Source: Methanobacteriota archaeon (GTDB taxonomy: Archaea > Thermoplasmatota > Poseidoniia > Poseidoniales > Poseidoniaceae). From it: 64,000 nt of DNA. The notes below the pieces were generated by a model. It ran no database searches. It saw nothing but the letters and a program-made list of their open reading frames with translations, and was not told the origin of the DNA. Each line of letters opens with the position of its first letter. Within the stretch, counting starts at the first letter, position 1. The stretch covers positions 29,877 to 93,876 of the forward strand of contig PBTA01000030.1 of the NCBI GenBank assembly GCA_002726395.1, written 5' to 3'. A program made the translations under genes and the position numbers. Shown here piece by piece: positions 11,604 to 59,456 of the stretch.

Positions 11604-12923
11604 CTATTCATCTCTTAGTTCTTCTAATAATTTCTTGACAGCAGTTTGGGTTTTTGGACCATTTAGTGCTTGTAATCTTGAAGCAACAATTTCAATTTCT
11701 TCTCCCTCTGCGCCAGCGCTTACTGCCATGTTTCTAGAATGTAATTTCATATGTCCGGCCTGAATTCCGCTGGTTGCAAGGGCTCTAAGAGCACCAAGGT
11801 TTTGCGCCAAACCAGCAGCACAAATTATTCCAGCCAGTTCGTTTGCCGATTCAACTCCAAGTATGGCAAGATTAGCTTTTGCAGTTGGGTGGACTTTTGA
11901 TGCACCGCCAACGATTCCTACTGCCATTGGTGTCTCGATACTTCCAATTAAGTTTCCAGATTCATCCCTTGACCAATTGGTCATTGAAGTATAATGATTA
12001 CTTGAGTGTGATGCCCATGCATGGCATCCAGCTTCGATAGCACGCCAGTCTTGGCCACAGGCGACAGCAACGCTGCTTATTGCGTTCATAACGCCTTTAT
12101 TGTGTGTTGTTGCCCTAAACGGGTCACTTACAGCAAAATGATGCGCCTCAATAATTCCTTGAATAACATCAAGTCCATTTTCCCTGGTACCGTCATTGGC
12201 AATCTCTTCGGGAGTGAATGTGGCAGAAACTCTCGCTAATCTGTGGGCGGCTAGATTTGATAGTATCTTCAAATGCACCCTGCCTCCAGTCATTCTTTCA
12301 ATTTCCGGAGCAATCAATTCCGCCATTGTATTAACTGCATTAGCTCCCATAGCGTCTCTGCAATCAACAATAATGTGAAGAATTAGCATTGGGCCTGACA
12401 TGGTTTCGATGATCCTAGTTTCAATTCTCTTACAGCCGCCGCCCAACTTTATCATCATAGAAGGCAGACTATTGCATAAATTGATTATTTCATCCTTTTC
12501 TTGATGTATACTTTTCATAGCCATTTCAAGATCCTCCACATCTAAAATTTGTAATTGGCCAATCATTAGTGGCGCATCATTCTGTGTCCTAAATCCGCCG
12601 TTATCTAAGCATCTCTTGGCCATGTTTGAGGCTGCAGCAACTACACTGGATTCTTCAAGGCAAAATGGGATTAGGTAGTGCTTGCTATCAATGACAAAAT
12701 TAGTTGCAATGCCTACTGGCAATGACATGGTGCCAATGACATTCTCAATCATTCGATCCGCAGCATCATCGTCTAGTTCGCCATTATTGGCAAGTGCTGC
12801 AACATGTTCATCAGAGATGCCAGATAGATTTTGTACTAGCTTTCGCCGTTCTTCAACTGATAATTTGAAGAAACCACTCAATCGACTATTCTCTACAGGC
12901 ATGTCCTCACTATTGGTACCCAT
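11604..12923 (-). CDS. hmgA: Hydroxymethylglutaryl-CoA reductase, class I, soluble catalytic domain
   Basis: DAMGANAVNTMAE (DAMGxN motif). Class I catalytic-domain architecture of about 440 aa without a membrane domain. The start is probably the Met at 12923 rather than 12944. Confidence 0.85.
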   Translation of the reverse strand: MGTNSEDMPVENSRLSGFFKLSVEERRKLVQNLSGISDEHVAALANNGELDDDAADRMIENVIGTMSLPVGIATNFVIDSKHYLIPFCLEESSVVAAASNMAKRCLDNGGFRTQNDAPLMIGQLQILDVEDLEMAMKSIHQEKDEIINLCNSLPSMMIKLGGGCKRIETRIIETMSGPMLILHIIVDCRDAMGANAVNTMAELIAPEIERMTGGRVHLKILSNLAAHRLARVSATFTPEEIANDGTRENGLDVIQGIIEAHHFAVSDPFRATTHNKGVMNAISSVAVACGQDWRAIEAGCHAWASHSSNHYTSMTNWSRDESGNLIGSIETPMAVGIVGGASKVHPTAKANLAILGVESANELAGIICAAGLAQNLGALRALATSGIQAGHMKLHSRNMAVSAGAEGEEIEIVASRLQALNGPKTQTAVKKLLEELRDE

Positions 12924-12944: not shown

Positions 12945-13108
12945 TGGGTTGTATGGATGTCAGTTTAACGGGTTTAACGCATTCATTAACGCGTTAATTA
13001 TATGTTAATTATACGTTAATTGGAGAAAATAATCTCACTGAATAAATCGATTGACGCATAATAACGGGTTTAATTGGTGCTAATTATGGTGAAATATCAA
13101 ATACCCTC
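12945..13108. promoter_or_regulatory. AT-rich divergent intergenic region with short direct repeats and a palindrome, lying between hmgA and the ATPase operon
   Basis: Direct repeats seen in sequence: ACGGGTTTAA(T/C) at about 12967 and 13064; GTTAATTATA(T/C) in tandem at about 12992 and 13004; GTTAATTGG at about 13015 and 13069. Palindrome AACGCGTT at about 12987. Confidence 0.4.
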
Positions 13109-14893
13109 TTGGTTGATGGTGCCAACATGCGTGTAGAAGGGTTACAATTTGAGATTCCTGAGTTAGCATACAATCCATTCTCAACAAGTCCATTGGAAAG
13201 TAATCAATCCAACCTTTATGTTGGCCGGCTAGGAGTAAGGGGAAGAATCTCCCAAAATATCAATTTTAGATCTAATCGTAGCATTTTAATGGTCGGCGAA
13301 CTAGGTAGCGGTAGAACATCTTTGCTTCGGTGTGCAGGCGAAGAGGCTCCAGTATACGTCCATATTGACCATATTTCGGCATCTAGACCGGATGAAAGCC
13401 TTCTACATCGTATGTATTCTAGCCTTGTTGGATATGATATACCAAAAAACTCGGTTGAACTAGTAAGTAAAATGGTTGATTTTTCTCGCTCTTTTAATAA
13501 TAAATTGCCACTTATTGTAATTGATACTCCAAATGTGGAGGGAAGCGTACTTTCTGTTGCACTTAGGGATGTATTACCGTCCTTAGAACGTCTACAGGCA
13601 GTAATTGTTGTAGTTGTAGAACCAAAACAGAGAATGAACATTCCAGATTATTTATTGAGTACATTTGCCAACGAAGTCAGTATTAACCCACTAACTGTAG
13701 ACGAAGTACAAGTATTGGTAGAACGGCGTATTTTATCGGTTACTAATCAGCCATTCAGTCTTAGCTTTGATGATGCTAAAATAATACATCAAAAAACCTC
13801 TGGAATGCCGATTAAAATCGTTAAATTCATGCGTGATGCAATAGACAACACGATGATGAACAACGTTGGAATTGATTTTTCGATTAAGAATGATGTTATA
13901 GAATCTCAGCCAGAAGTAACTCAAGACTTTGGATATGCCGAAGAAGAAACTAACTTAATAATTGATTCAATTGATGACCAAACAGTAATTGACGCATCTA
14001 TGCCATGGACTGAAAGAGATGAGTTAAGTGAACTAAGCTCGCAAATAGAAACTGCTGACCCGTTTGGTTTTGAGCTAGATTTAGACGAGTTGTCAGAATC
14101 TCAACAATTTGATGAAGAGGTTCAAGAACATACATTTTCAGCATTTCCTTCTAATGATGCTGCCATTACTGAAACAAAAAAACCACGCCCTCACATTGAT
14201 GCGGGAGCTTTTGGTGGACTGTTAGGGAGGACACGAGACTTTGCTGAAATTGAGGAGTCTGAACCAGACCATATGGTCAATGAAATGGAAACTCAGGGAG
14301 CAGAACTGTGGGTGTCCAAAGAGATGATTGAAGTAGAAGAAAAAATAGAATTTACTGCCGAAGACTCGGCAGAATTAATTCACGATGAGATCGGTATCGA
14401 GTCAAATGATGAACCGTTTGAATTGCCCCTAAATCAAACAATAGAGCGCGTAGAGGAATCTAACCATGGTCAAAATTTAGGAGTGTTGTCTAGTCAAATA
14501 GCCACATTATTGGCTCCGCTAATAAATAATAATATAATTTCAGGCGATTTTGATACAAGTTCCAATCGGTTCATAAGCGCATTAATGGGTATGTCAAATC
14601 AAAATTTTTCAGCCAAAACCGATTATCCATTAGACCCGTTGGCTCTTTCTTCATTAACCTCTAATGAATCATATGTTTTGTCAATTGCTAGATTAAGGAG
14701 ATATTCTCCTAGCGATAAAGAAATATTGACTCATCTGTCGATTAAAAGGCCTAGATTGTCACAAATAAGTAATAAGTTACTAAAATTAGGAATATTAAAT
14801 GTTAGAATGAAAGGCCGGAATCGCTATTTCGAACTTACCCAAGCAGCCAAAGCGCAATTAATTGCTTGGGGCATTATTGGAGGTGATGAATGA
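13109..14893 (+). CDS. Archaeal-type ATPase (PF01637-like AAA) with a degenerate Walker A, an acidic linker and a C-terminal winged HTH
   Basis: GRLGVRGRI...ILMVGELGSGRTSLL resembles the Arch_ATPase motif (GRxxEL...G.RRxGKTSLL) but with Arg in place of the Walker-A Lys. Walker B-like LIVIDTP. Sensor-like NPLTVDEV. A roughly 200-aa very acidic middle region. C-terminal wHTH-like segment (ILTHLSIKRPRLSQISNKLLKLGILN...RYFELT). Confidence 0.45.
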   Translation: MVDGANMRVEGLQFEIPELAYNPFSTSPLESNQSNLYVGRLGVRGRISQNINFRSNRSILMVGELGSGRTSLLRCAGEEAPVYVHIDHISASRPDESLLHRMYSSLVGYDIPKNSVELVSKMVDFSRSFNNKLPLIVIDTPNVEGSVLSVALRDVLPSLERLQAVIVVVVEPKQRMNIPDYLLSTFANEVSINPLTVDEVQVLVERRILSVTNQPFSLSFDDAKIIHQKTSGMPIKIVKFMRDAIDNTMMNNVGIDFSIKNDVIESQPEVTQDFGYAEEETNLIIDSIDDQTVIDASMPWTERDELSELSSQIETADPFGFELDLDELSESQQFDEEVQEHTFSAFPSNDAAITETKKPRPHIDAGAFGGLLGRTRDFAEIEESEPDHMVNEMETQGAELWVSKEMIEVEEKIEFTAEDSAELIHDEIGIESNDEPFELPLNQTIERVEESNHGQNLGVLSSQIATLLAPLINNNIISGDFDTSSNRFISALMGMSNQNFSAKTDYPLDPLALSSLTSNESYVLSIARLRRYSPSDKEILTHLSIKRPRLSQISNKLLKLGILNVRMKGRNRYFELTQAAKAQLIAWGIIGGDE

Positions 14894-15939
14894 TGACTTG
14901 GAGTATTTCGTGGTCATGGCAAGCACCTTCTAGAATCTCATGTATTGCAGCAGTTGAAGGTGGAGTTGTAATAAGCAATGGTCTAGAGCTACATCTATTA
15001 GAATCAGATGGAAGTAAAAGGTGGTCAATTAAAACCCCATTCAAGGTTCATTCAATTTACTATAATAATGGGATTTTAGCAGCCTTAGCAGCACATGGCT
15101 TCTATGTAATATCAACTACTGATGGAAGTATGATTCATGATGGCAGGTCTACTTATGGTGGATTTAATGATGTCATGAGTAGGCCAGGTGGGGGTTGGAT
15201 TTTATCAGGCAAGGAAGGGCAATTGCACTTATTTTCTCATGAGGGAATTGGCATTAAAAGATTTGAAACAGGCAAGGTTAGAAGATTAGTCGGTTGGTTG
15301 GACAGAGAGCATATTCTATGGCAATCAGATGATGGTTTGTTGTGGTGTGGCCGATTAGGTAATAATTACGCAAAAAGGTGTTTAGAAGATCGCATCTGGA
15401 GTTGGGTTTCTCGATTAGATAGCGGGCGTCTGGTACTTCAGACAAGTTCTGGTGAGATTTGGGAAGGTATTCCCCATCCATTTGGCTGGGATCATATTGA
15501 AAAATTACAATCCGATTCTTTGGAACCAATGGAAGGGATTCGCTGTGGAGATGGATGGTGGATTCTAGGGATTGAAGGTTTACTGTACCATCTGTCAAAT
15601 TCATCCGATAGTGAAAGCAGTCAATTAGGTAATGAAATGAATTTAGGAGATTTATTGGCAAAAATTACCAATGATAGTATGGTTACTGCAACTAGAAATG
15701 GTTTAATTCGAATGTGGAAAGCACCTCACCTAGCAAACTCAGAGCGTGAGAGTCGTTACCAAGCAGCTGCTGAAGCCGCACTAGCAAGAGATTGGGAAGA
15801 ACGTAAAGCGATATTTATTAGAGCCCAACAATCAGAAACGGAAGGAAGATTATCTCTTGCTGTTGAATTATACCAATCATTAGGCAGACAAGAGGATGTC
15901 AAGCGTTTGTTAAAACGGCAGAAGGAGGATGGAGAATGA
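14890..15939 (+). CDS. Beta-propeller (PQQ/WD40-like) repeat protein
   Basis: Repeated W/G-rich blade-like segments (GGVVIS...WSI, GILAAL...YVIS, GGWILSG...LHLF, GRLVLQTSSGEIW, GDGWWILG). The start overlaps the upstream stop (ATGA). Confidence 0.4.
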   Translation: MMTWSISWSWQAPSRISCIAAVEGGVVISNGLELHLLESDGSKRWSIKTPFKVHSIYYNNGILAALAAHGFYVISTTDGSMIHDGRSTYGGFNDVMSRPGGGWILSGKEGQLHLFSHEGIGIKRFETGKVRRLVGWLDREHILWQSDDGLLWCGRLGNNYAKRCLEDRIWSWVSRLDSGRLVLQTSSGEIWEGIPHPFGWDHIEKLQSDSLEPMEGIRCGDGWWILGIEGLLYHLSNSSDSESSQLGNEMNLGDLLAKITNDSMVTATRNGLIRMWKAPHLANSERESRYQAAAEAALARDWEERKAIFIRAQQSETEGRLSLAVELYQSLGRQEDVKRLLKRQKEDGE

Positions 15940-16235
15940 CCGATATTAACGACAAAATTAGCGAAGAAAAACTAACACATTATTTGAATTTGACCAAAGA
16001 AGCCCGTAAAAAGGCCACACCTATTCATGAAAAGGGTACTGAGCAAGATGATATGTTAGCAGTTTTGCTGAGGATGGCAGATGACTATACCAGTGATGCG
16101 CAGCATTTCATGAAAATAGGAGATTATATCAGAGCCTATGGGGCAATAAATTATGCCCATGCATGGATTGATGCAGGAGTTAAATTAAGGTTGTTAGATG
16201 GTCATGGGGATGACCGACTATTCACTCTGCCATAA
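15936..16235 (+). CDS. Hypothetical 99-aa protein, third gene of the ATPase/beta-propeller operon
   Basis: ATGA start/stop overlap with the upstream gene. No recognised motif. Confidence 0.3.
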   Translation: MTDINDKISEEKLTHYLNLTKEARKKATPIHEKGTEQDDMLAVLLRMADDYTSDAQHFMKIGDYIRAYGAINYAHAWIDAGVKLRLLDGHGDDRLFTLP

Positions 16236-16240
16236 CCGTT

Positions 16241-16669
16241 CTATAGACCTTCTATCAAATTTAGATGGTTATTCTTAACCACTTCAACAACGTCAATACC
16301 AGATTTGAATAATCTTCTTTTTAGGTCTTTGTCCACTGTCAAAACAGCTAATTGATGATTAACTGCTAAATCATAGATAATATCGTCTGTGTGCCTTAAA
16401 TCATGTGAAATATGATTTATTTCATTTGACTTTTTGGCCAGAAGTTCTAGCAGCAAGGTGTTTTTTCTTGTCCGTTTAACACTTAATCTTTCTAGTTCTT
16501 CTGTTATTTCGGGTAGTAGTATTAATTCAAAATTGCCAAATAGATGTTCCAATTCTATTTCAAAATTAATCCCAGCATCAATTATGGCCACCCAGCCACA
16601 CGCATCGATAATGATTCGTTGAGTCATTATACCGCCTATTGTATTATGCCGTATCCAATTAATCGCCAA
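16241..16669 (-). CDS. PIN-domain protein (COG1412-like) of the conserved archaeal S6e-aIF2gamma-PIN operon
   Basis: N-terminal IIIDACGWVAIIDAG (PIN Asp pocket). About 140 aa. Overlaps the 3' end of the aIF2gamma gene. Conserved archaeal gene order. Confidence 0.55.
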   Translation of the reverse strand: MAINWIRHNTIGGIMTQRIIIDACGWVAIIDAGINFEIELEHLFGNFELILLPEITEELERLSVKRTRKNTLLLELLAKKSNEINHISHDLRHTDDIIYDLAVNHQLAVLTVDKDLKRRLFKSGIDVVEVVKNNHLNLIEGL

Positions 16670-17883
16670 CGAGAACCGATTCTTCTTGAAAGTGAAACCC
16701 GTTCTCCAGAGTCAACACAGATTGGAAGCCTTAATTCTAAAGCAGTCCTTGTCTTTTCAGCGTTTCTGGTTACGCCAACAGATGTCGCAGTTGCTACATT
16801 AATCATCAACATTTCATTATTTCTTAGCGGTTGAATTTTTTCTGGTTTATCTTGATCTGAAGAAACCATTGATTCCATTAAGTGTACTGATATTTCTAAC
16901 GCAGACCTCACTTCAGGCAATTCGCCTTCTAGTGAGACCACTTGTCCCGATAAGTTATCTGAGGTGGTTATTGATGGGTCAAGTTTAGTGGCAAGCCCAC
17001 AAAGGCCTCCAGCATGCATTTTTTCTAACGCTATACCTCCACCTTGCATACTGGTAACAGTAGCAGAAATTGGTTCCCATCTAGTTTTAGATCCTTGTTC
17101 TATTTTTCTTCCAGGTCCAATAACAACCTTGTCACCAATTTTAAATTCGCCTCTAACAATACTACCACCAATCACTCCACCCAACAGCTTTGCTGGTCTG
17201 GTGCCCGGGCGATTAATGTCAAATGACCTTGCAACATGCATCAATGGCTTTTCTTTTTCATCCCGCTTTGGGGTTGGAATCGTGTTCTCTATGGCATCAA
17301 TAAGAATATCTAGATTAACATCATGGTGAGCAGACACAGGTATAATAGGTGCATTTTCTGCCACCGTGCCGCTCAAAAATTCCTTAATTTCTTGATGAGA
17401 TTCAATCGCACGCTCCCTACTGACTAGATCAATCTTATTTTGAACAACTACAATATTTTTTATCCCAGACATATTCAAAGCCATCAAATGCTCTCTAGTC
17501 TGAGGCTGGGGGCATTTTTCATTAGCAGCAACCATCAACATTGCGCCATCCATTATTGATGCGCCTGTTATCATGATTGCCATTAATGTCTCGTGCCCAG
17601 GTGCATCGACAAAGGACACAACTCTCTGTAAATCGTCAGGAGAATCTTTCTTACCTTCTGGATGTTTACCAGTAGCGTAGTAAGTGCCGTCACCAGTTTT
17701 GTAAAATGCAGTATCAGCATATCCAAGTTTAATCGATATACCTCTTTTCCTTTCTTCAGAGTGAGTGTCAGTCCAAACTCCGGAAAGAGCTTTTGTCAAA
17801 GTGGTTTTACCGTGATCTACGTGACCAACTAGTCCAATGTTTACAGTTGGCTGCTCGGGAAGTTTTCTCGCCATTCCCGTCAA
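16636..17883 (-). CDS. eif2g: Translation initiation factor aIF-2 gamma subunit
   Basis: G1 GHVDHGKTTL, G3 DAPGHE, G4 NKID. A Cys-containing zinc knuckle typical of aIF2gamma. About 415 aa. Confidence 0.9.
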   Translation of the reverse strand: MTGMARKLPEQPTVNIGLVGHVDHGKTTLTKALSGVWTDTHSEERKRGISIKLGYADTAFYKTGDGTYYATGKHPEGKKDSPDDLQRVVSFVDAPGHETLMAIMITGASIMDGAMLMVAANEKCPQPQTREHLMALNMSGIKNIVVVQNKIDLVSRERAIESHQEIKEFLSGTVAENAPIIPVSAHHDVNLDILIDAIENTIPTPKRDEKEKPLMHVARSFDINRPGTRPAKLLGGVIGGSIVRGEFKIGDKVVIGPGRKIEQGSKTRWEPISATVTSMQGGGIALEKMHAGGLCGLATKLDPSITTSDNLSGQVVSLEGELPEVRSALEISVHLMESMVSSDQDKPEKIQPLRNNEMLMINVATATSVGVTRNAEKTRTALELRLPICVDSGERVSLSRRIGSRWRLIGYGIIQ

Positions 17884-18481: not shown

Positions 18482-19726
18482 TCAGAATTGTTTTTTCACC
18501 AACATTTCTAATCTCTTAGCAATGTCACTGGGTAAGAAATGCGGCATTGAAAGATGGGTAGTTCTTCCTCTTCCACCGGTAACTGTAGATATTCTGGTGA
18601 CGATTAATTGTCGCTTCTCGAGTTCTTTGAGATACTTCCATAATGTGGTGTGGCTCTTCATTTTTTCATCATATTCTTCACAAACTACGGCGTATAGGTT
18701 TTCTACATCTCCAGTAGTCATAGAACTCTCTTTTCTAAGTCTTCGACAAATTGCTAAAAGAACCAACATTGCGTGGGGTTGAAGATTTTCCAACGCATCA
18801 ATTTCGCTAACAATATCAACTGAAAGTTCTTTGTCTTTTGAGTGTACATCATCGGCACTAATTTCCCTTAGTGTGTGATCATCTTGTCTTATTTCACAAG
18901 CCTCTGCTGCGGCTTTTAGTAACTCGATTGCCAATCTAGCATCGCCTATTGGAGCAGATTTTTGTGCTATAAGTCTAATTATGTCATCTGAGCATGAGCC
19001 ATTTGCCAAAGATAAATCAGCTCTCTGTTTACTAATTTTATACAACTCATCTTCATTATATGACGGGATTTGAATCAAGTTGGTTTTCCCCATTCTTGAT
19101 AGGACTGCAGTCTCTAAAACATCGATAATTTGTTCCTGGCTAATTAGAATTAGTGACAGAGTACCTTTGCCTTCTTGGTCTTCATCAATTCGGAGTAGTT
19201 GATACAGAATATCGTCTCCCGATTTTCTCAACATGTGGTCAACTTCATCTAATATCACGATTAAATGAGCAGAATTTCGCCTGGTTAGCTTTCTTAAACT
19301 GAGTAGTAACTCTCCCATAGATAGCCCTCTATCTGGGTGTCCTGGGTCTATTGCGTGTAGTATTCGTTGAACAACCCTAGTGCTAGTTGATGCGTTACGG
19401 CAGTTAACATGAGCTATGCGAATCTCTCTTCTATTGGCTAAATGTCGTTTAAGGTCACGGCAGAAGGTTTTGACAAGAACAGTTTTACCACTCCCTACTG
19501 GACCTGATATGACTGCTCTGCAACTAGTCTCTGGCTTGTCTATAGAAGAAAATCTAGCAGCCAACTTATTTTGAAAATCTTCTCTTCCAACAATGTTTTC
19601 TGGTACATAATCAAAATCTAAAGGTCCTGGGTCTTTGATTACGTAACCGGCACCAATTCGGTCAAGATAGCCACTCATAACATCGGAAGGGTTACGCCAA
19701 CCGTTATTGAATATACGCTTTAACAA
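18482..19726 (-). CDS. cdc6: Orc1/Cdc6 replication initiator
   Basis: AAA+ Walker A VISGPVGSGKTVLV. Walker B ILDEVD. C-terminal winged helix. About 414 aa. Confidence 0.85.
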   Translation of the reverse strand: MLKRIFNNGWRNPSDVMSGYLDRIGAGYVIKDPGPLDFDYVPENIVGREDFQNKLAARFSSIDKPETSCRAVISGPVGSGKTVLVKTFCRDLKRHLANRREIRIAHVNCRNASTSTRVVQRILHAIDPGHPDRGLSMGELLLSLRKLTRRNSAHLIVILDEVDHMLRKSGDDILYQLLRIDEDQEGKGTLSLILISQEQIIDVLETAVLSRMGKTNLIQIPSYNEDELYKISKQRADLSLANGSCSDDIIRLIAQKSAPIGDARLAIELLKAAAEACEIRQDDHTLREISADDVHSKDKELSVDIVSEIDALENLQPHAMLVLLAICRRLRKESSMTTGDVENLYAVVCEEYDEKMKSHTTLWKYLKELEKRQLIVTRISTVTGGRGRTTHLSMPHFLPSDIAKRLEMLVKKQF

Positions 19727-19751
19727 CGACTAATTATTGATATTTTCTCAG

Positions 19752-20861
19752 TCAAGGTATCTCATCAAACATATATCCAGTTTCCCATTTCTTCTCGCCT
19801 AGAGCCACTTCTAATTCAAATGGGGTAATCAGAGGTTTTCGATATCTCACCGCATCATCAATCGCAATTCTAGGGCATGCAGTATTGACAAATGCGTCAA
19901 CGGGATAGAAATCAATTAGGTCAGGTCCAATATGTTCAAGTGCTAACAAATAGCCCTTTTTTCCATGCTTTTCCAATAATCTTTTCATTCTCAAAGCAAG
20001 TGTTCTTCTCATCTGACCCGGTTTTTCACCGATTAATATGCCAAAAGACTGACAATCTTGGCTAGACATTATCAAACCAAACCGTTGTCTAAGTATTCTT
20101 TCAATCCGTTCAAATGACATTTCTTTTGCATCACCTGAGTATGGGTCGAGCATTGCTAATGGTTTTCCAGTATGCAGAACTAGGCCGATTGGATGAAAAT
20201 CTCCGGACCCCAAAAATAGGTAATGTCCGATACTTGGATCATCTCCAGAATAATTACAGCCGAGTACTTGACCTGGGAAGGATAGTCTTGCTCCACCAAT
20301 TGGAATAGTAACATCATAGCCTGCGGCTTCAAGTCTATCGTGGAAGTCAGGCAGTAGGTGTAAGTGCTGTATTGAACCGACCAAGCCAAGTTTTGTATCA
20401 GTTAGCGGAGCCATTCTACCAACAGCGTCCATGAATTTTTCTTGTGCAGCTTCTTCTGAGAGCATTGTATTCTCATGCTGATTTGCCATTCTTTCTCTAG
20501 CCATGGCAAGATGTCTGTTTAGAGTCGGTATTACAGGTTTTAACTCTGGGTCACCATCATACGTAACATCGATGAATTCTGTTGGCATGCCTGAATCTAT
20601 GTTCATTTGGGAATGGCCCATGTGAGCAACTAGTTCAACTCCCATCATTTGCATTTTATCATGCACTAAATCACAAGCACCGTAACATGGGTCTGCAGCC
20701 AAGATCACTTTTGCACTGGTTTCAGTTTCTATTTCGTCCATCATTTCAAGAGCTTGCATTTTAAGCCCTTCAGGCACTTGCAAAGCGATTAGACGGTTAT
20801 CGTTTTCTTTAATTTTATCAACTAAATCATTCAGTTTAAAATCATGTCTAGATAGGTCCAA
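19752..20861 (-). CDS. dph2: 2-(3-amino-3-carboxypropyl)histidine synthase (diphthamide biosynthesis, Dph2)
   Basis: ALQVPEGLK...DPCYGACDL...HMGHS motifs typical of archaeal Dph2 radical-SAM-like enzymes. About 369 aa. Confidence 0.7.
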   Translation of the reverse strand: MDLSRHDFKLNDLVDKIKENDNRLIALQVPEGLKMQALEMMDEIETETSAKVILAADPCYGACDLVHDKMQMMGVELVAHMGHSQMNIDSGMPTEFIDVTYDGDPELKPVIPTLNRHLAMARERMANQHENTMLSEEAAQEKFMDAVGRMAPLTDTKLGLVGSIQHLHLLPDFHDRLEAAGYDVTIPIGGARLSFPGQVLGCNYSGDDPSIGHYLFLGSGDFHPIGLVLHTGKPLAMLDPYSGDAKEMSFERIERILRQRFGLIMSSQDCQSFGILIGEKPGQMRRTLALRMKRLLEKHGKKGYLLALEHIGPDLIDFYPVDAFVNTACPRIAIDDAVRYRKPLITPFELEVALGEKKWETGYMFDEIP

Positions 20862-57761: not shown

Positions 57762-59456
57762 GTGTTTCATATGTCTGATGACAAATACGAATCGCACGTT
57801 AAGGCAGTTTTATCAGAATGCCCTGATGCGAATGTTGATGATGTCAAAGCTTCATTTAAGAAATATGAAGAAGAATTCTATATTCCTCCACAAGATGCAC
57901 TTAGATCAATCGTTAGAAGATTCCAAGGTGAACAACAAACTACATCACCGAATAGGGCTAATAACCAACCAAGGAATACTAAGAAAGTAAAGTCGCTATC
58001 TGAACTTTCAGGGACCGACAAGGATGTTGAGATAGAAGTAGAAATCATCTCTCATAATGTTAGAGAGCAAACAATTAGAGGTGAGGAGAAGAAAATCGCC
58101 TTCGGATTACTTGAAGATAATCCGTGGGATGATGGCTCAGAAAGAGTTCGTTGGGAATACAAGGATTGGGGGCCAAACTCGAACATAACACCTGGTTCTG
58201 TAGTCCGAATTGAAGGTGCATCAGTCAATGAGTATCAAGGAAAAATGTCGCTAAACATAAATCAAGGGGCAAGAATCGCGGTACTGAGAGAGGGAACAAG
58301 ACCTGTTAATGCTCCTGGTGAGCCAATAGATATCAGTAATATTCCAAAAGACGGCTATATTTGTATTGTTGGCAGAGTACTTTCATGCAGGGAAGACCAA
58401 ATTCACCGTAAAGATGGTTCTGGATCTATCGATGTGGTAAGGGGTAGAATTGCCGATGAATCTGGCACCATTGGTTTTCTTTCATGGGAACCATTCGAAC
58501 ATGAGATTGGTAGTTTGGTAAAAATAGATGGGGCACAGGTTAAGACCTTTAGAGATACTCCAGAATTGAATTTTGGTAGAACAACTAAGATCGAAACCTT
58601 TCACGACGCCAATTTTGCAGATACAGAAAAACTAAACAGCCAAAATATGAAAACAGTATCTCAACTTACCGATGGTTCAAGAGATGTAGAAATTATTGTA
58701 CAAATTACTGAATGGCAGAAGCGTTCTTTTACTAAAGATGGAGTCGAAAAGCATCTTTGGTCAGGGCAAATAGCAGATTTGACCGGAAGATGCCGTATGA
58801 GTGCCTGGGAAGAATTGCCTATAGACGAAAATAAATTACCGTTAACCGTTAAACTGTCCGGCGTTAGGGTAAGAGCTTGGCAGGGCATTCCTGACATAAC
58901 GGTTGATAGTGCAAAGCAAGTAGAATTTCTTGACAAAACTCCTTGGGATGAATCAATCAATCTAGAGGACCATGTTGTCGAAGTTGACTTGACTGAATTA
59001 ACTACTTCGTCTAGTAGAGTTGGAATATCTACCGAAGGAACAATAGTTAGTGTGCGAGATGATTCTGGAATTATAATGCGTTGTTTAGGATGTCGTCGAG
59101 TGCTTCGCGATGGCGAATGTTCATCTTGTGATTCGACAGAATCTCAACAAGATGTTAGATTGAGGTTAGTAATAGATAACGGTGAAAACACCGCTTCTTT
59201 ATTGATAAATAAGGCAGCATCAATCAAACTAACAGGTTTAGATGAAGATAAGATGGCTAAAAAAATAGCATCCGATGGGAAAATGGAATTTGTCCAATCA
59301 CTAAGGGATATGATGCTTGGAAGAATAATAAAAGCCAACGGTCGTACAATAGTTGACGAACAAGGCGCAATGATTCTTGCTGACCATGTTGAATTAAATG
59401 ACGGTGATGCAGGCCTTTTAGCCACTGAAGTAAGGTCTAAATGGGGGGTTAACTAA
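57762..59456 (+). CDS. rpa: Replication protein A (RPA) large subunit: ssDNA-binding protein with multiple OB folds and a C4 zinc finger
   Basis: Tandem OB-fold-like modules. CLGCRRVLRDGECSSCDS zinc ribbon typical of euryarchaeal RPA41/RPA1. Confidence 0.7.
   Translation: MFHMSDDKYESHVKAVLSECPDANVDDVKASFKKYEEEFYIPPQDALRSIVRRFQGEQQTTSPNRANNQPRNTKKVKSLSELSGTDKDVEIEVEIISHNVREQTIRGEEKKIAFGLLEDNPWDDGSERVRWEYKDWGPNSNITPGSVVRIEGASVNEYQGKMSLNINQGARIAVLREGTRPVNAPGEPIDISNIPKDGYICIVGRVLSCREDQIHRKDGSGSIDVVRGRIADESGTIGFLSWEPFEHEIGSLVKIDGAQVKTFRDTPELNFGRTTKIETFHDANFADTEKLNSQNMKTVSQLTDGSRDVEIIVQITEWQKRSFTKDGVEKHLWSGQIADLTGRCRMSAWEELPIDENKLPLTVKLSGVRVRAWQGIPDITVDSAKQVEFLDKTPWDESINLEDHVVEVDLTELTTSSSRVGISTEGTIVSVRDDSGIIMRCLGCRRVLRDGECSSCDSTESQQDVRLRLVIDNGENTASLLINKAASIKLTGLDEDKMAKKIASDGKMEFVQSLRDMMLGRIIKANGRTIVDEQGAMILADHVELNDGDAGLLATEVRSKWGVN

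Follow-up and report, generated by a model that had tools for sequence, protein, structure and literature searches.

A three-gene operon (ORF1-ORF2-ORF3; ORF, open reading frame) lies on the + strand of a 64,000-nucleotide stretch of Poseidoniaceae DNA (contig PBTA01000030.1; hereafter the window), immediately behind an array of short TTAACG-type half-sites. The operon encodes a P-loop protein with a predicted C-terminal winged helix, a modelled beta-propeller and a DUF357 protein. The most likely reading of the trio is a complex that is peculiar to its lineage and regulates genes, not an enzyme; it was adopted because the TTAACG array just upstream is strongly conserved. This array, which the earlier note on this DNA had missed, is the strongest functional clue. 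More specifically, and tentatively, the trio may be a MalT-like, nucleotide-switched, propeller-assisted regulator that binds the array.

The spacer between ORF1 and its divergent neighbour hmgA comprises 224 bp and holds eight half-sites. The array is positioned between two divergent promoters, those of hmgA and ORF1. The elements of this region were as follows.

11604 to 12902, - strand: hmgA, encoding 3-hydroxy-3-methylglutaryl-coenzyme A (HMG-CoA) reductase, divergent neighbour (Pfam HMG-CoA_red matched on orthologues)
12965 to 13019, no strand: symmetric six-half-site array, with TTAACG at 12965, 12974 and 12986, CGTTAA at 12992, TGTTAA at 13003 and CGTTAA at 13014
13051 to 13066, + strand: two direct half-sites 10 bp apart, TTGACG at 13051 and ATAACG at 13061, with AC and TAAC columns invariant
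13091 to 13105, + strand: GAAAnATCAAATACC, resembling a transcription factor B recognition element and TATA box (BRE/TATA-like), with eight invariant columns in the 13-locus alignment

The six-half-site array measures 55 bp and is near-symmetric around the perfect palindrome TTAACGCGTTAA (12986-12997), which occurs once in the window. Neighbouring half-sites on the same side start 9 to 12 bp apart. When 13 loci of 39 to 62% GC were aligned, the half-site columns were invariant or nearly so and the spacers varied freely. Half-sites remained invariant where ORF1 itself was down to 25 to 37% identity, and the array was also kept in lineages with a lysine in the ORF1 Walker A motif (described below). 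Nowhere else in the window is TAACG packed as densely as in this array, where 150 bp hold 6 copies; shuffles reached at most 5. Another TAACG cluster, found at 58840 within coding sequence, was attributed to chance.

The spacer was longer at one locus whose ORF1 is 31% identical to that of the window: it comprised 595 bp (L001:5337-5931), with G/T-rich GGTGATG-like repeats upstream of the TTAACG array. Metagenome matches to TTAACGCGTTAANNNNGCGTTAA were considered as further arrays and rejected; 107 of the 120 matches listed belong to an unrelated repeat family, and they are uninformative on a regulon. The repeat in question (…GATTAATCGCGATTAAT…TTAACGCGTTAATCGCGCGTTAACTGCGATTAATCTGCAGCCCTA…) contains TTAACGCGTTAANNNNGCGTTAA and was present on 107 of the 120 contigs listed (L047-L166; for example L047:18-180), none of them with an archaeal hmgA or ORF1. 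The repeat is probably the terminus of a mobile element; the DNA that carries it is not archaeal and may be that of a eukaryotic host.

hmgA adjoined ORF1 in every locus examined. Its start was assigned to ATG 12902 (MPVENSRL in five other lineages) and not to TTG 12944; a Shine-Dalgarno-like GTGAGGA precedes it. On the opposite side, GAAAnATCAAATACC is centred approximately 26 nt before the ORF1 start codon, ATG 13127. Such spacing is the TATA-to-start distance expected of an archaeal leaderless mRNA. On the strength of this position and distance, GAAAnATCAAATACC is probably the core promoter and the operon is probably transcribed as a leaderless mRNA.

The three genes run head to tail and were delimited, with their junctions, as follows.

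13127 to 14893, + strand: ORF1, 588 amino acids, P-loop module, acidic linker and predicted winged helix
14879 to 14893, + strand: coupling junction 1, Shine-Dalgarno GGAGGTGA at 14879-14886, then ATGA overlap
14890 to 15939, + strand: ORF2, 349 amino acids, modelled beta-propeller and helical tail
15924 to 15939, + strand: coupling junction 2, Shine-Dalgarno GGAGG at 15924-15928, then ATGA overlap
15936 to 16235, + strand: ORF3, 99 amino acids, DUF357 (PF04010 / arCOG01224)

N-termini of orthologues were compared, and ORF1 was assigned to ATG 13127 because all of them begin MRV or MRA; this replaces the start at TTG 13109 given in the earlier note. The overlapping operon with ATGA coupling described there was borne out. 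ORF1 and ORF2 join as GGAGGTGATGA-ATGA (ORF2 ATG at 14890, ORF1 TGA at 14891-14893), and ORF2 and ORF3 as GGAGGATGGAGA-ATGA (ORF3 ATG at 15936, ORF2 TGA at 15937-15939). Using coordinates approximated from tblastn, the 4-nt overlap was present at the first junction in 27 of 31 related loci and at the second in 23 of 24.

Gene order was compared between the window and 39 loci, taken from 3 metagenome sequences and 36 GTDB species genomes and named Poseidoniales or, more broadly, Thermoplasmatota, Methanobacteriota or Euryarchaeota. The order ScpB, hmgA(-), ORF1, ORF2, ORF3, PIN(-), aIF2-gamma(-), S6e(-), Orc1(-) was found in every locus with enough flank, with one copy of the trio per locus in a fixed position beside housekeeping genes. 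It was also kept in the most divergent members, L043 and L044 among them; one of the most divergent is a Thalassarchaeaceae sequence and another a contig of 62% GC. ORF1 evolves faster than its neighbours, with 36 to 58% identity where ORF2 shows 62 to 85% and aIF2-gamma 79 to 90%.

Protein searches returned 328 homologues of ORF1 and 140 of ORF2. All ORF2 homologues were at least 42% identical, and those named by source were all Poseidoniales or Thermoplasmatota. Matches carrying a name place the source of the window in the Poseidoniaceae. An exhaustive search of 1.84 billion representatives with the ORF1 family profile yielded only 186 relatives. No homologues of ORF1 or ORF2 were detectable by protein searches outside the narrow distribution that the two share; the statement of absence elsewhere rests on these searches, the pattern scan of the genome collection being one that could recover Poseidoniales only. 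The ORF1 family is confined to Poseidoniales (Marine Group II), and the three genes form a translationally coupled, vertically inherited, Poseidoniales-specific operon. As evidence of function, the overlaps count for more than adjacency, and so does the narrow distribution common to ORF1 and ORF2.

The following parts were recognised in ORF1.

ORF1 residues 11-24: NPF motif
ORF1 residues ~30-245: AAA_16/AAA_22-type P-loop module and lid
ORF1 residues 57-65, 13295 to 13321, + strand: Walker A, GELGSGRTS
13505 to 13525, + strand: Walker B, LPLIVID, ending at D133 with no Glu after it

R63, encoded by AGA at 13313-13315, aligned with the Walker A lysine in profile and PDB alignments, and no canonical GK[ST] was found elsewhere in the whole protein. 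An arginine at the lysine position of a P-loop ATPase relative, as originally noticed, was thereby confirmed. Assignment to Arch_ATPase (PF01637) did not hold. The window protein matched neither PF01637, even at E<=1, nor DUF234 in Pfam; its AAA_22 match reached E 0.028 (15.2 bits against a cut-off of 27), and its best NCBIfam match was the ExeA-like TIGR03015 over residues 58-239 (E 3.5e-5, 23 bits against a cut-off of 324). Family-level matches were counted on 38 full-length aligned members of 21% mean identity. At E<=0.01, 35 of the 38 matched AAA_16, 21 matched AAA_22 and only 3 matched PF01637; AAA_16 and AAA_22 fit better. Sixteen members matched nSTAND1 weakly, and none of the 38 matched DUF234.

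The longest PDB alignment of the family profile was to Cdc6 (7jgr_G, residues 23-286, E 0.0017). When the family was compared with the local Orc1/Cdc6 profile by hhalign, a probability of 85% was obtained over 114 columns around the P-loop, with VGR aligned and GSGRT placed onto GSGKT. Foldseek ranked Orc1/Cdc6, ORC1, TnsC and Hda first for the AlphaFold2 (AF2) model of ORF1, a ranking that is indicative only. From the AAA_16 counts, the Cdc6 alignment, hhalign and Foldseek, ORF1 is treated here as an ORC/STAND-like AAA+-type P-loop protein and not as a member of PF01637.

The conservation of R63 was examined across the family. All orthologues with 52% identity or more have it, so the substitution is conserved among close orthologues, but not across the family: 7 of the 38 members carry Lys and the rest Arg, with no third residue. 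Two of the Lys-bearing lineages were looked up, and both were found in a gene order identical to that of the window; on this basis the two were taken as orthologues. In a rough neighbour-joining tree the GIGKT forms were basal and the other Lys forms nested among Arg forms, with several switches. G57, G60, G62, S65 and the Walker B D133 were invariant across the 38 sequences, and an acidic residue after D133 was present in none of them. The motifs accordingly read GxxGSG[R/K][TS] and hhhhD, departing from GxxxxGK[ST] and hhhhD[DE], and the lid has G-x-P where the neighbouring Orc1/Cdc6 has the sensor 2 GDAR.

The invariance of the P-loop glycines, S65 and D133, and the restriction of position 63 to Lys or Arg, indicate that the pocket is under selection. 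Replacement of the Walker A lysine by arginine usually abolishes hydrolysis and keeps binding; the RuvB K64R entry 1in6 was among the PDB and Foldseek matches of ORF1. Together these features point to nucleotide binding without efficient hydrolysis and not to a dead site. Describing the P-loop as inactivated was too strong; the feature that the whole family lacks is a catalytic Glu following D133. The suggested role as nucleotide-sensing regulator or scaffold fared better: a binding or switch role comes close to it and fits the missing catalytic Glu and the kept pocket.

The remainder of ORF1 agreed with the linker and winged-helix C-terminus first described, as judged by composition and by profile matches to the ArsR family. 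Residues 246-450 (205 residues) form an acidic linker with 27% Asp+Glu, a net charge of -46 and an isoelectric point (pI) of 4.05. Residues 246-500 are predicted to be disordered and contain the conserved islands IDASMPW, FGFELDLDEL, AFGGLLGRTR, GAELW and SAELIHDEIG. The last 88 residues (501-588) are basic (pI 10.3), make up the best-conserved segment of the protein and are modelled as helix-helix-helix-strand-strand. Their profile matched ArsR-family winged helices (BigR 3pqj, E 1.7e-4; ArsR 3f6v, E 2.4e-4). NCBIfam BigR matched ORF1 at E 0.0019, far under its cut-off, and 4 of 18 C-terminal domains matched Cdc6_C weakly. By these profiles the C-terminus is predicted to be an ArsR/MarR-like winged helix.

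ORF2 was modelled confidently as a seven-bladed beta-propeller with a helical tail. The AF2 model (predicted local distance difference test, pLDDT, 88.4) shows 27 strands over residues 5-277, in approximately seven four-stranded blades. The propeller spans residues 1-278 and is followed by four TPR-like-looking helices at 279-347. Foldseek matched it to BamB, Lis1, beta'-COP and WDR5 at E of about 1e-12. No Pfam or NCBIfam model was matched, and WD40 and PQQ gave nothing at E<=1. The earlier PQQ/WD40-like description is supported by the modelled fold but not by those Pfam models. At L003:9734-10782, on a 1.5-Mb contig, the propeller gene was called in two pieces (227 + 136 amino acids), which could be explained by a frameshift, by misassembly or by a true division of the gene.

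ORF3 had been listed as a small unknown protein. It is not an orphan: it matched DUF357 in Pfam (72.4 bits against a cut-off of 29.4, E 3.1e-20), corresponding to arCOG01224, and also the DUF357 structures PDB 2PMR and 2OO2 (E of about 2e-5). arCOG01224 is present in 463 of 524 archaeal genomes and has been listed as a top-priority uncharacterised archaeal protein (PMC6393860). Its normal genomic partners in other archaea are DUF555 and a TagD-like cytidylyltransferase (PMC6393860). At this locus neither of these adjoins ORF3, which is instead coupled translationally to the propeller gene, a new genomic context for the family.

Remote relatives of ORF1 were found in metagenomic sequence (P0370, P0373, P0385, P0391; approximately 400 amino acids; family profile E 1e-9 to 1e-12). 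They share with ORF1 the NPF lead-in, the same motif order and an RPR-x-SQI recognition helix; unlike ORF1, they lack the acidic linker and have a canonical GxGK[ST] and a Walker B with DE or DD. P0370 scores above the cut-off of AAA_16. P0370, P0385 and P0391 adjoin HerA/DUF87-like or AAA_16/DUF4062 ATPases in defence-island-like surroundings, without propeller or DUF357. Since these relatives keep canonical motifs and have neither linker, propeller nor DUF357, the Poseidoniales ORF1 family looks like a derived branch in which acidic linker and propeller partner were acquired while catalytic residues disappeared.

At the remote loci (L040:8001-10861, L041:8001-11520, L042:5538-9072) a compact winged-helix ATPase (GxGKT) is followed by a HerA/DUF87-like ATPase of 766 to 779 amino acids or an AAA_16/DUF4062 protein, with near or overlapping junctions. 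This pair is a candidate for a two-gene module that has not been described. In its vicinity were PIN toxins, an Mrr-NACHT-WD40 protein and an SLFN/AlbA_2 protein.

In the mechanism that we favour, ORF1 would act as a DNA-binding switch or scaffold in which nucleotide controls self-association and not work. This role was proposed because the P-loop and Walker B Asp are intact, the Walker A position holds Arg or Lys, and the catalytic Glu is absent. Its winged helix would recognise the TTAACG half-sites. Escherichia coli MalT assembles cooperatively on arrays of MalT boxes; several ORF1 molecules may likewise assemble cooperatively on the eight-site array under nucleotide control, in the manner of MalT/LAL-type STAND regulators. 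Two promoters would be controlled by the assembly, that of its own operon and, in the opposite direction, that of hmgA. The ORF2 propeller may dock on one or more of the conserved linker motifs of ORF1 and supply input or modulate assembly, and DUF357 would be co-expressed with both.

Several points weigh against this account. The analysis shows gene anatomy, domain folds, conservation patterns and the array with its conservation, whereas ORF1-array binding, ORF1-ORF2 contact, the genes regulated and the binding of nucleotide without its hydrolysis are inferences. A different regulator of hmgA could be the one that uses the array. The whole 12-kb neighbourhood is syntenic across the order, and adjacency alone is weak evidence of function because the block as a whole is frozen. 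This applies most to DUF357, which has different partners in other archaea (DUF555, cytidylyltransferase; PMC6393860). Arg at the Walker A position is compatible with slow hydrolysis and does not strictly exclude it. The Foldseek ranking of ORF1 is no more than indicative because the model is poor (pLDDT 48, from a shallow alignment). TGAAC/GTTCA clusters lie in the 160 bp upstream of the remote relatives and are the densest of their own locus (7 at L041 and 5-6 at L042, against shuffle maxima of 5 and 4), statistics that are biased because the motif was chosen after the sequences had been seen. At L040 the upstream TGAAC/GTTCA cluster was not significant against shuffles. These clusters are suggestive only.

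Of the other explanations, the one that survives best holds that the three genes are mere neighbours frozen in a syntenic core, with the array serving an unrelated hmgA regulator, ORF1 acting elsewhere, and ORF2 and DUF357 independent. The entire ScpB-Orc1 block does keep its order across Poseidoniales, DUF357 has other conserved partners in other archaea (PMC6393860), and contact between ORF1 and ORF2 is inferred, not directly observed. Against this explanation stand the 4-nt overlaps and internal Shine-Dalgarno sequences kept at both junctions in most loci and the narrow distribution common to ORF1 and ORF2; remote ORF1 relatives also lie behind clusters of a half-site, though a different one. 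This explanation was considered unlikely.

A second explanation is that ORF1-ORF2 is a chromosome-organisation or replication-linked nucleoprotein complex. An ORC-derived pseudo-ATPase would then assemble near smc-scpAB and orc1, at a loading site or one resembling a centromere, and gene regulation would not be its role. In all genomes compared, the distance of the trio locus to scpB is approximately 1.5 kb and that to orc1/cdc6 approximately 3.6 kb, the nearest structural and profile neighbours of ORF1 are Orc1/Cdc6, ORC, TnsC and Hda, and inverted arrays of short repeats about one helical turn apart resemble initiator or partition sites. Against this, spacers are GC-rich in high-GC lineages and no AT-rich unwinding element lies beside the array, the gene of a genuine Orc1/Cdc6, one with GSGKT, is close by, the search of the 64 kb revealed no second array, and a location between divergent promoters is typical of an operator. 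To our knowledge, the array sites do not resemble known archaeal origin recognition boxes. The explanation was judged decidedly unlikely. The array was also rejected as a replication origin; it has no adjacent AT-rich unwinding element, and since the spacer upstream of orc1 is only approximately 25 bp, an origin directly upstream of that gene was discounted as well.

That ORF1 is a working ATPase, with Arg replacing Lys and the propeller serving as substrate adaptor of a motor or remodeller, was considered very unlikely. The P-loop and Walker B Asp are strictly conserved and Lys-bearing orthologues exist, but no member has a catalytic Glu after the Walker B Asp, the GDAR-type sensor 2 is replaced by G-x-P, and the usual effect of the Lys-to-Arg change is, as stated above, loss of hydrolysis with binding kept.

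A more specific form of the chromosome-organisation proposal is highly improbable: ORF1-ORF2 as a hydrolysis-dead ORC-derived machine marking a single site, the eight-site array between smc-scpAB and orc1. In Marine Group II archaea it would serve as centromere or as a platform for loading SMC, comparable in function to ParB/parS, with DUF357 as co-factor. If true, DUF357 proteins would for the first time have a functional context. An anti-virus defence module of STAND type with nucleoside triphosphatase (NTPase) and WD40 sensor split over two genes is extremely improbable and was rejected: nSTAND1 is matched weakly by 16 of 38 members and the remote relatives lie in defence-island-like surroundings, but PADLOC models matched none of ORF1, ORF2 and ORF3, there is no effector domain, and the trio occupies a fixed site among housekeeping genes in every genome, defence systems being typically patchy and mobile.

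The surroundings of the operon were recorded as follows. Upstream neighbours on the + strand are smc, a probable scpA and scpB; beyond the trio, convergent on the - strand, are genes for a PIN_9 protein, aIF2-gamma, S6e and Orc1/Cdc6. ORF3 and the PIN gene converge in the window with 5 bp between them. PIN_9 (16241-16669) and aIF2-gamma (16636-17883), both on the - strand, overlap by 34 nt as listed (16636-16669), an overlap that may shrink with a later PIN start codon. In some Poseidoniales an extra - strand gene of 134 to 153 amino acids without Pfam match lies between DUF357 and PIN_9 (L001:9451-9912, L045:11151-11555, L046:11025-11444); it is absent from the window. A diphthamide synthase gene is located approximately 25 bp beyond orc1/cdc6 (18482-19752; GSGKT, DEVD, GDAR). 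Cumulative GC skew of the window peaks near 16 kb and reaches its minimum near 36 kb, both at gene-strand switches. An Rfam scan of the whole window returned no family at gathering score.

All components of the trio belong to known kinds: an AAA_16-type NTPase carrying a predicted winged helix, a propeller, and DUF357. Four features appear to be undescribed, namely the split architecture, a pocket that tolerates Lys or Arg and has no Walker B Glu, the acidic motif-bearing linker and an eight-site array conserved across the order. The partnership was not described in the literature searched, where topics covering DUF357, arCOG01224 and a Poseidoniales ATPase with winged helix gave only the arCOG dark-matter survey (PMC6393860); within that literature, the earlier statement that the propeller partnership is not a described system stands. 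The operon places DUF357 in a new genomic context, and the ORF1 family offers a natural case of an AAA+-type pocket under selection with relaxed catalytic residues. Poseidoniales are among the most abundant archaea of the surface ocean and are uncultured. A predicted, universally conserved, lineage-specific DNA-binding complex beside hmgA, a key gene of lipid synthesis, would provide a handle on the regulation of their core physiology, and the predicted protein-DNA pair of a small winged helix and a 12-bp palindrome is testable in vitro without growing the organism.

Known systems were also compared with the trio. ExeA/GspA-like AAA_22 proteins (TIGR03015, PEP-CTERM-associated ATPase) share with ORF1 the 'x-P-F ... 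hhVGR' lead-in and the 'GG-x-P-R' lid motif; they differ in having no winged helix or acidic linker and in their gene surroundings. Orc1/Cdc6 resembles ORF1 in VGR followed by GSG(K/R)T and in the layout of AAA+ module, lid and C-terminal winged helix. It differs in that the hhalign match is limited to the N-terminal P-loop region of ORF1, that ORF1 has a linker of approximately 250 residues between lid and winged helix, and that ORF1 lacks the sensor 2 Arg and Walker B Glu. From MalT/LAL STAND regulators the trio departs in that the sensor-like repeat is a propeller from a separate gene, with no repeat domain on the ORF1 chain; the arm of ORF1 is a disordered acidic linker with short motifs and not a helical super-structure; its predicted helix-turn-helix is ArsR/MarR-like and not LuxR-type; the host is archaeal; and Walker A has Arg in most members and Walker B no Glu. 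With these same regulators it shares an N-terminal AAA_16-type P-loop and a C-terminal DNA-binding domain, predicted here, on one chain, an associated repeat-type interaction module (here ORF2), and a putative target array of short asymmetric direct and inverted sites upstream of promoters, like that of MalT boxes.

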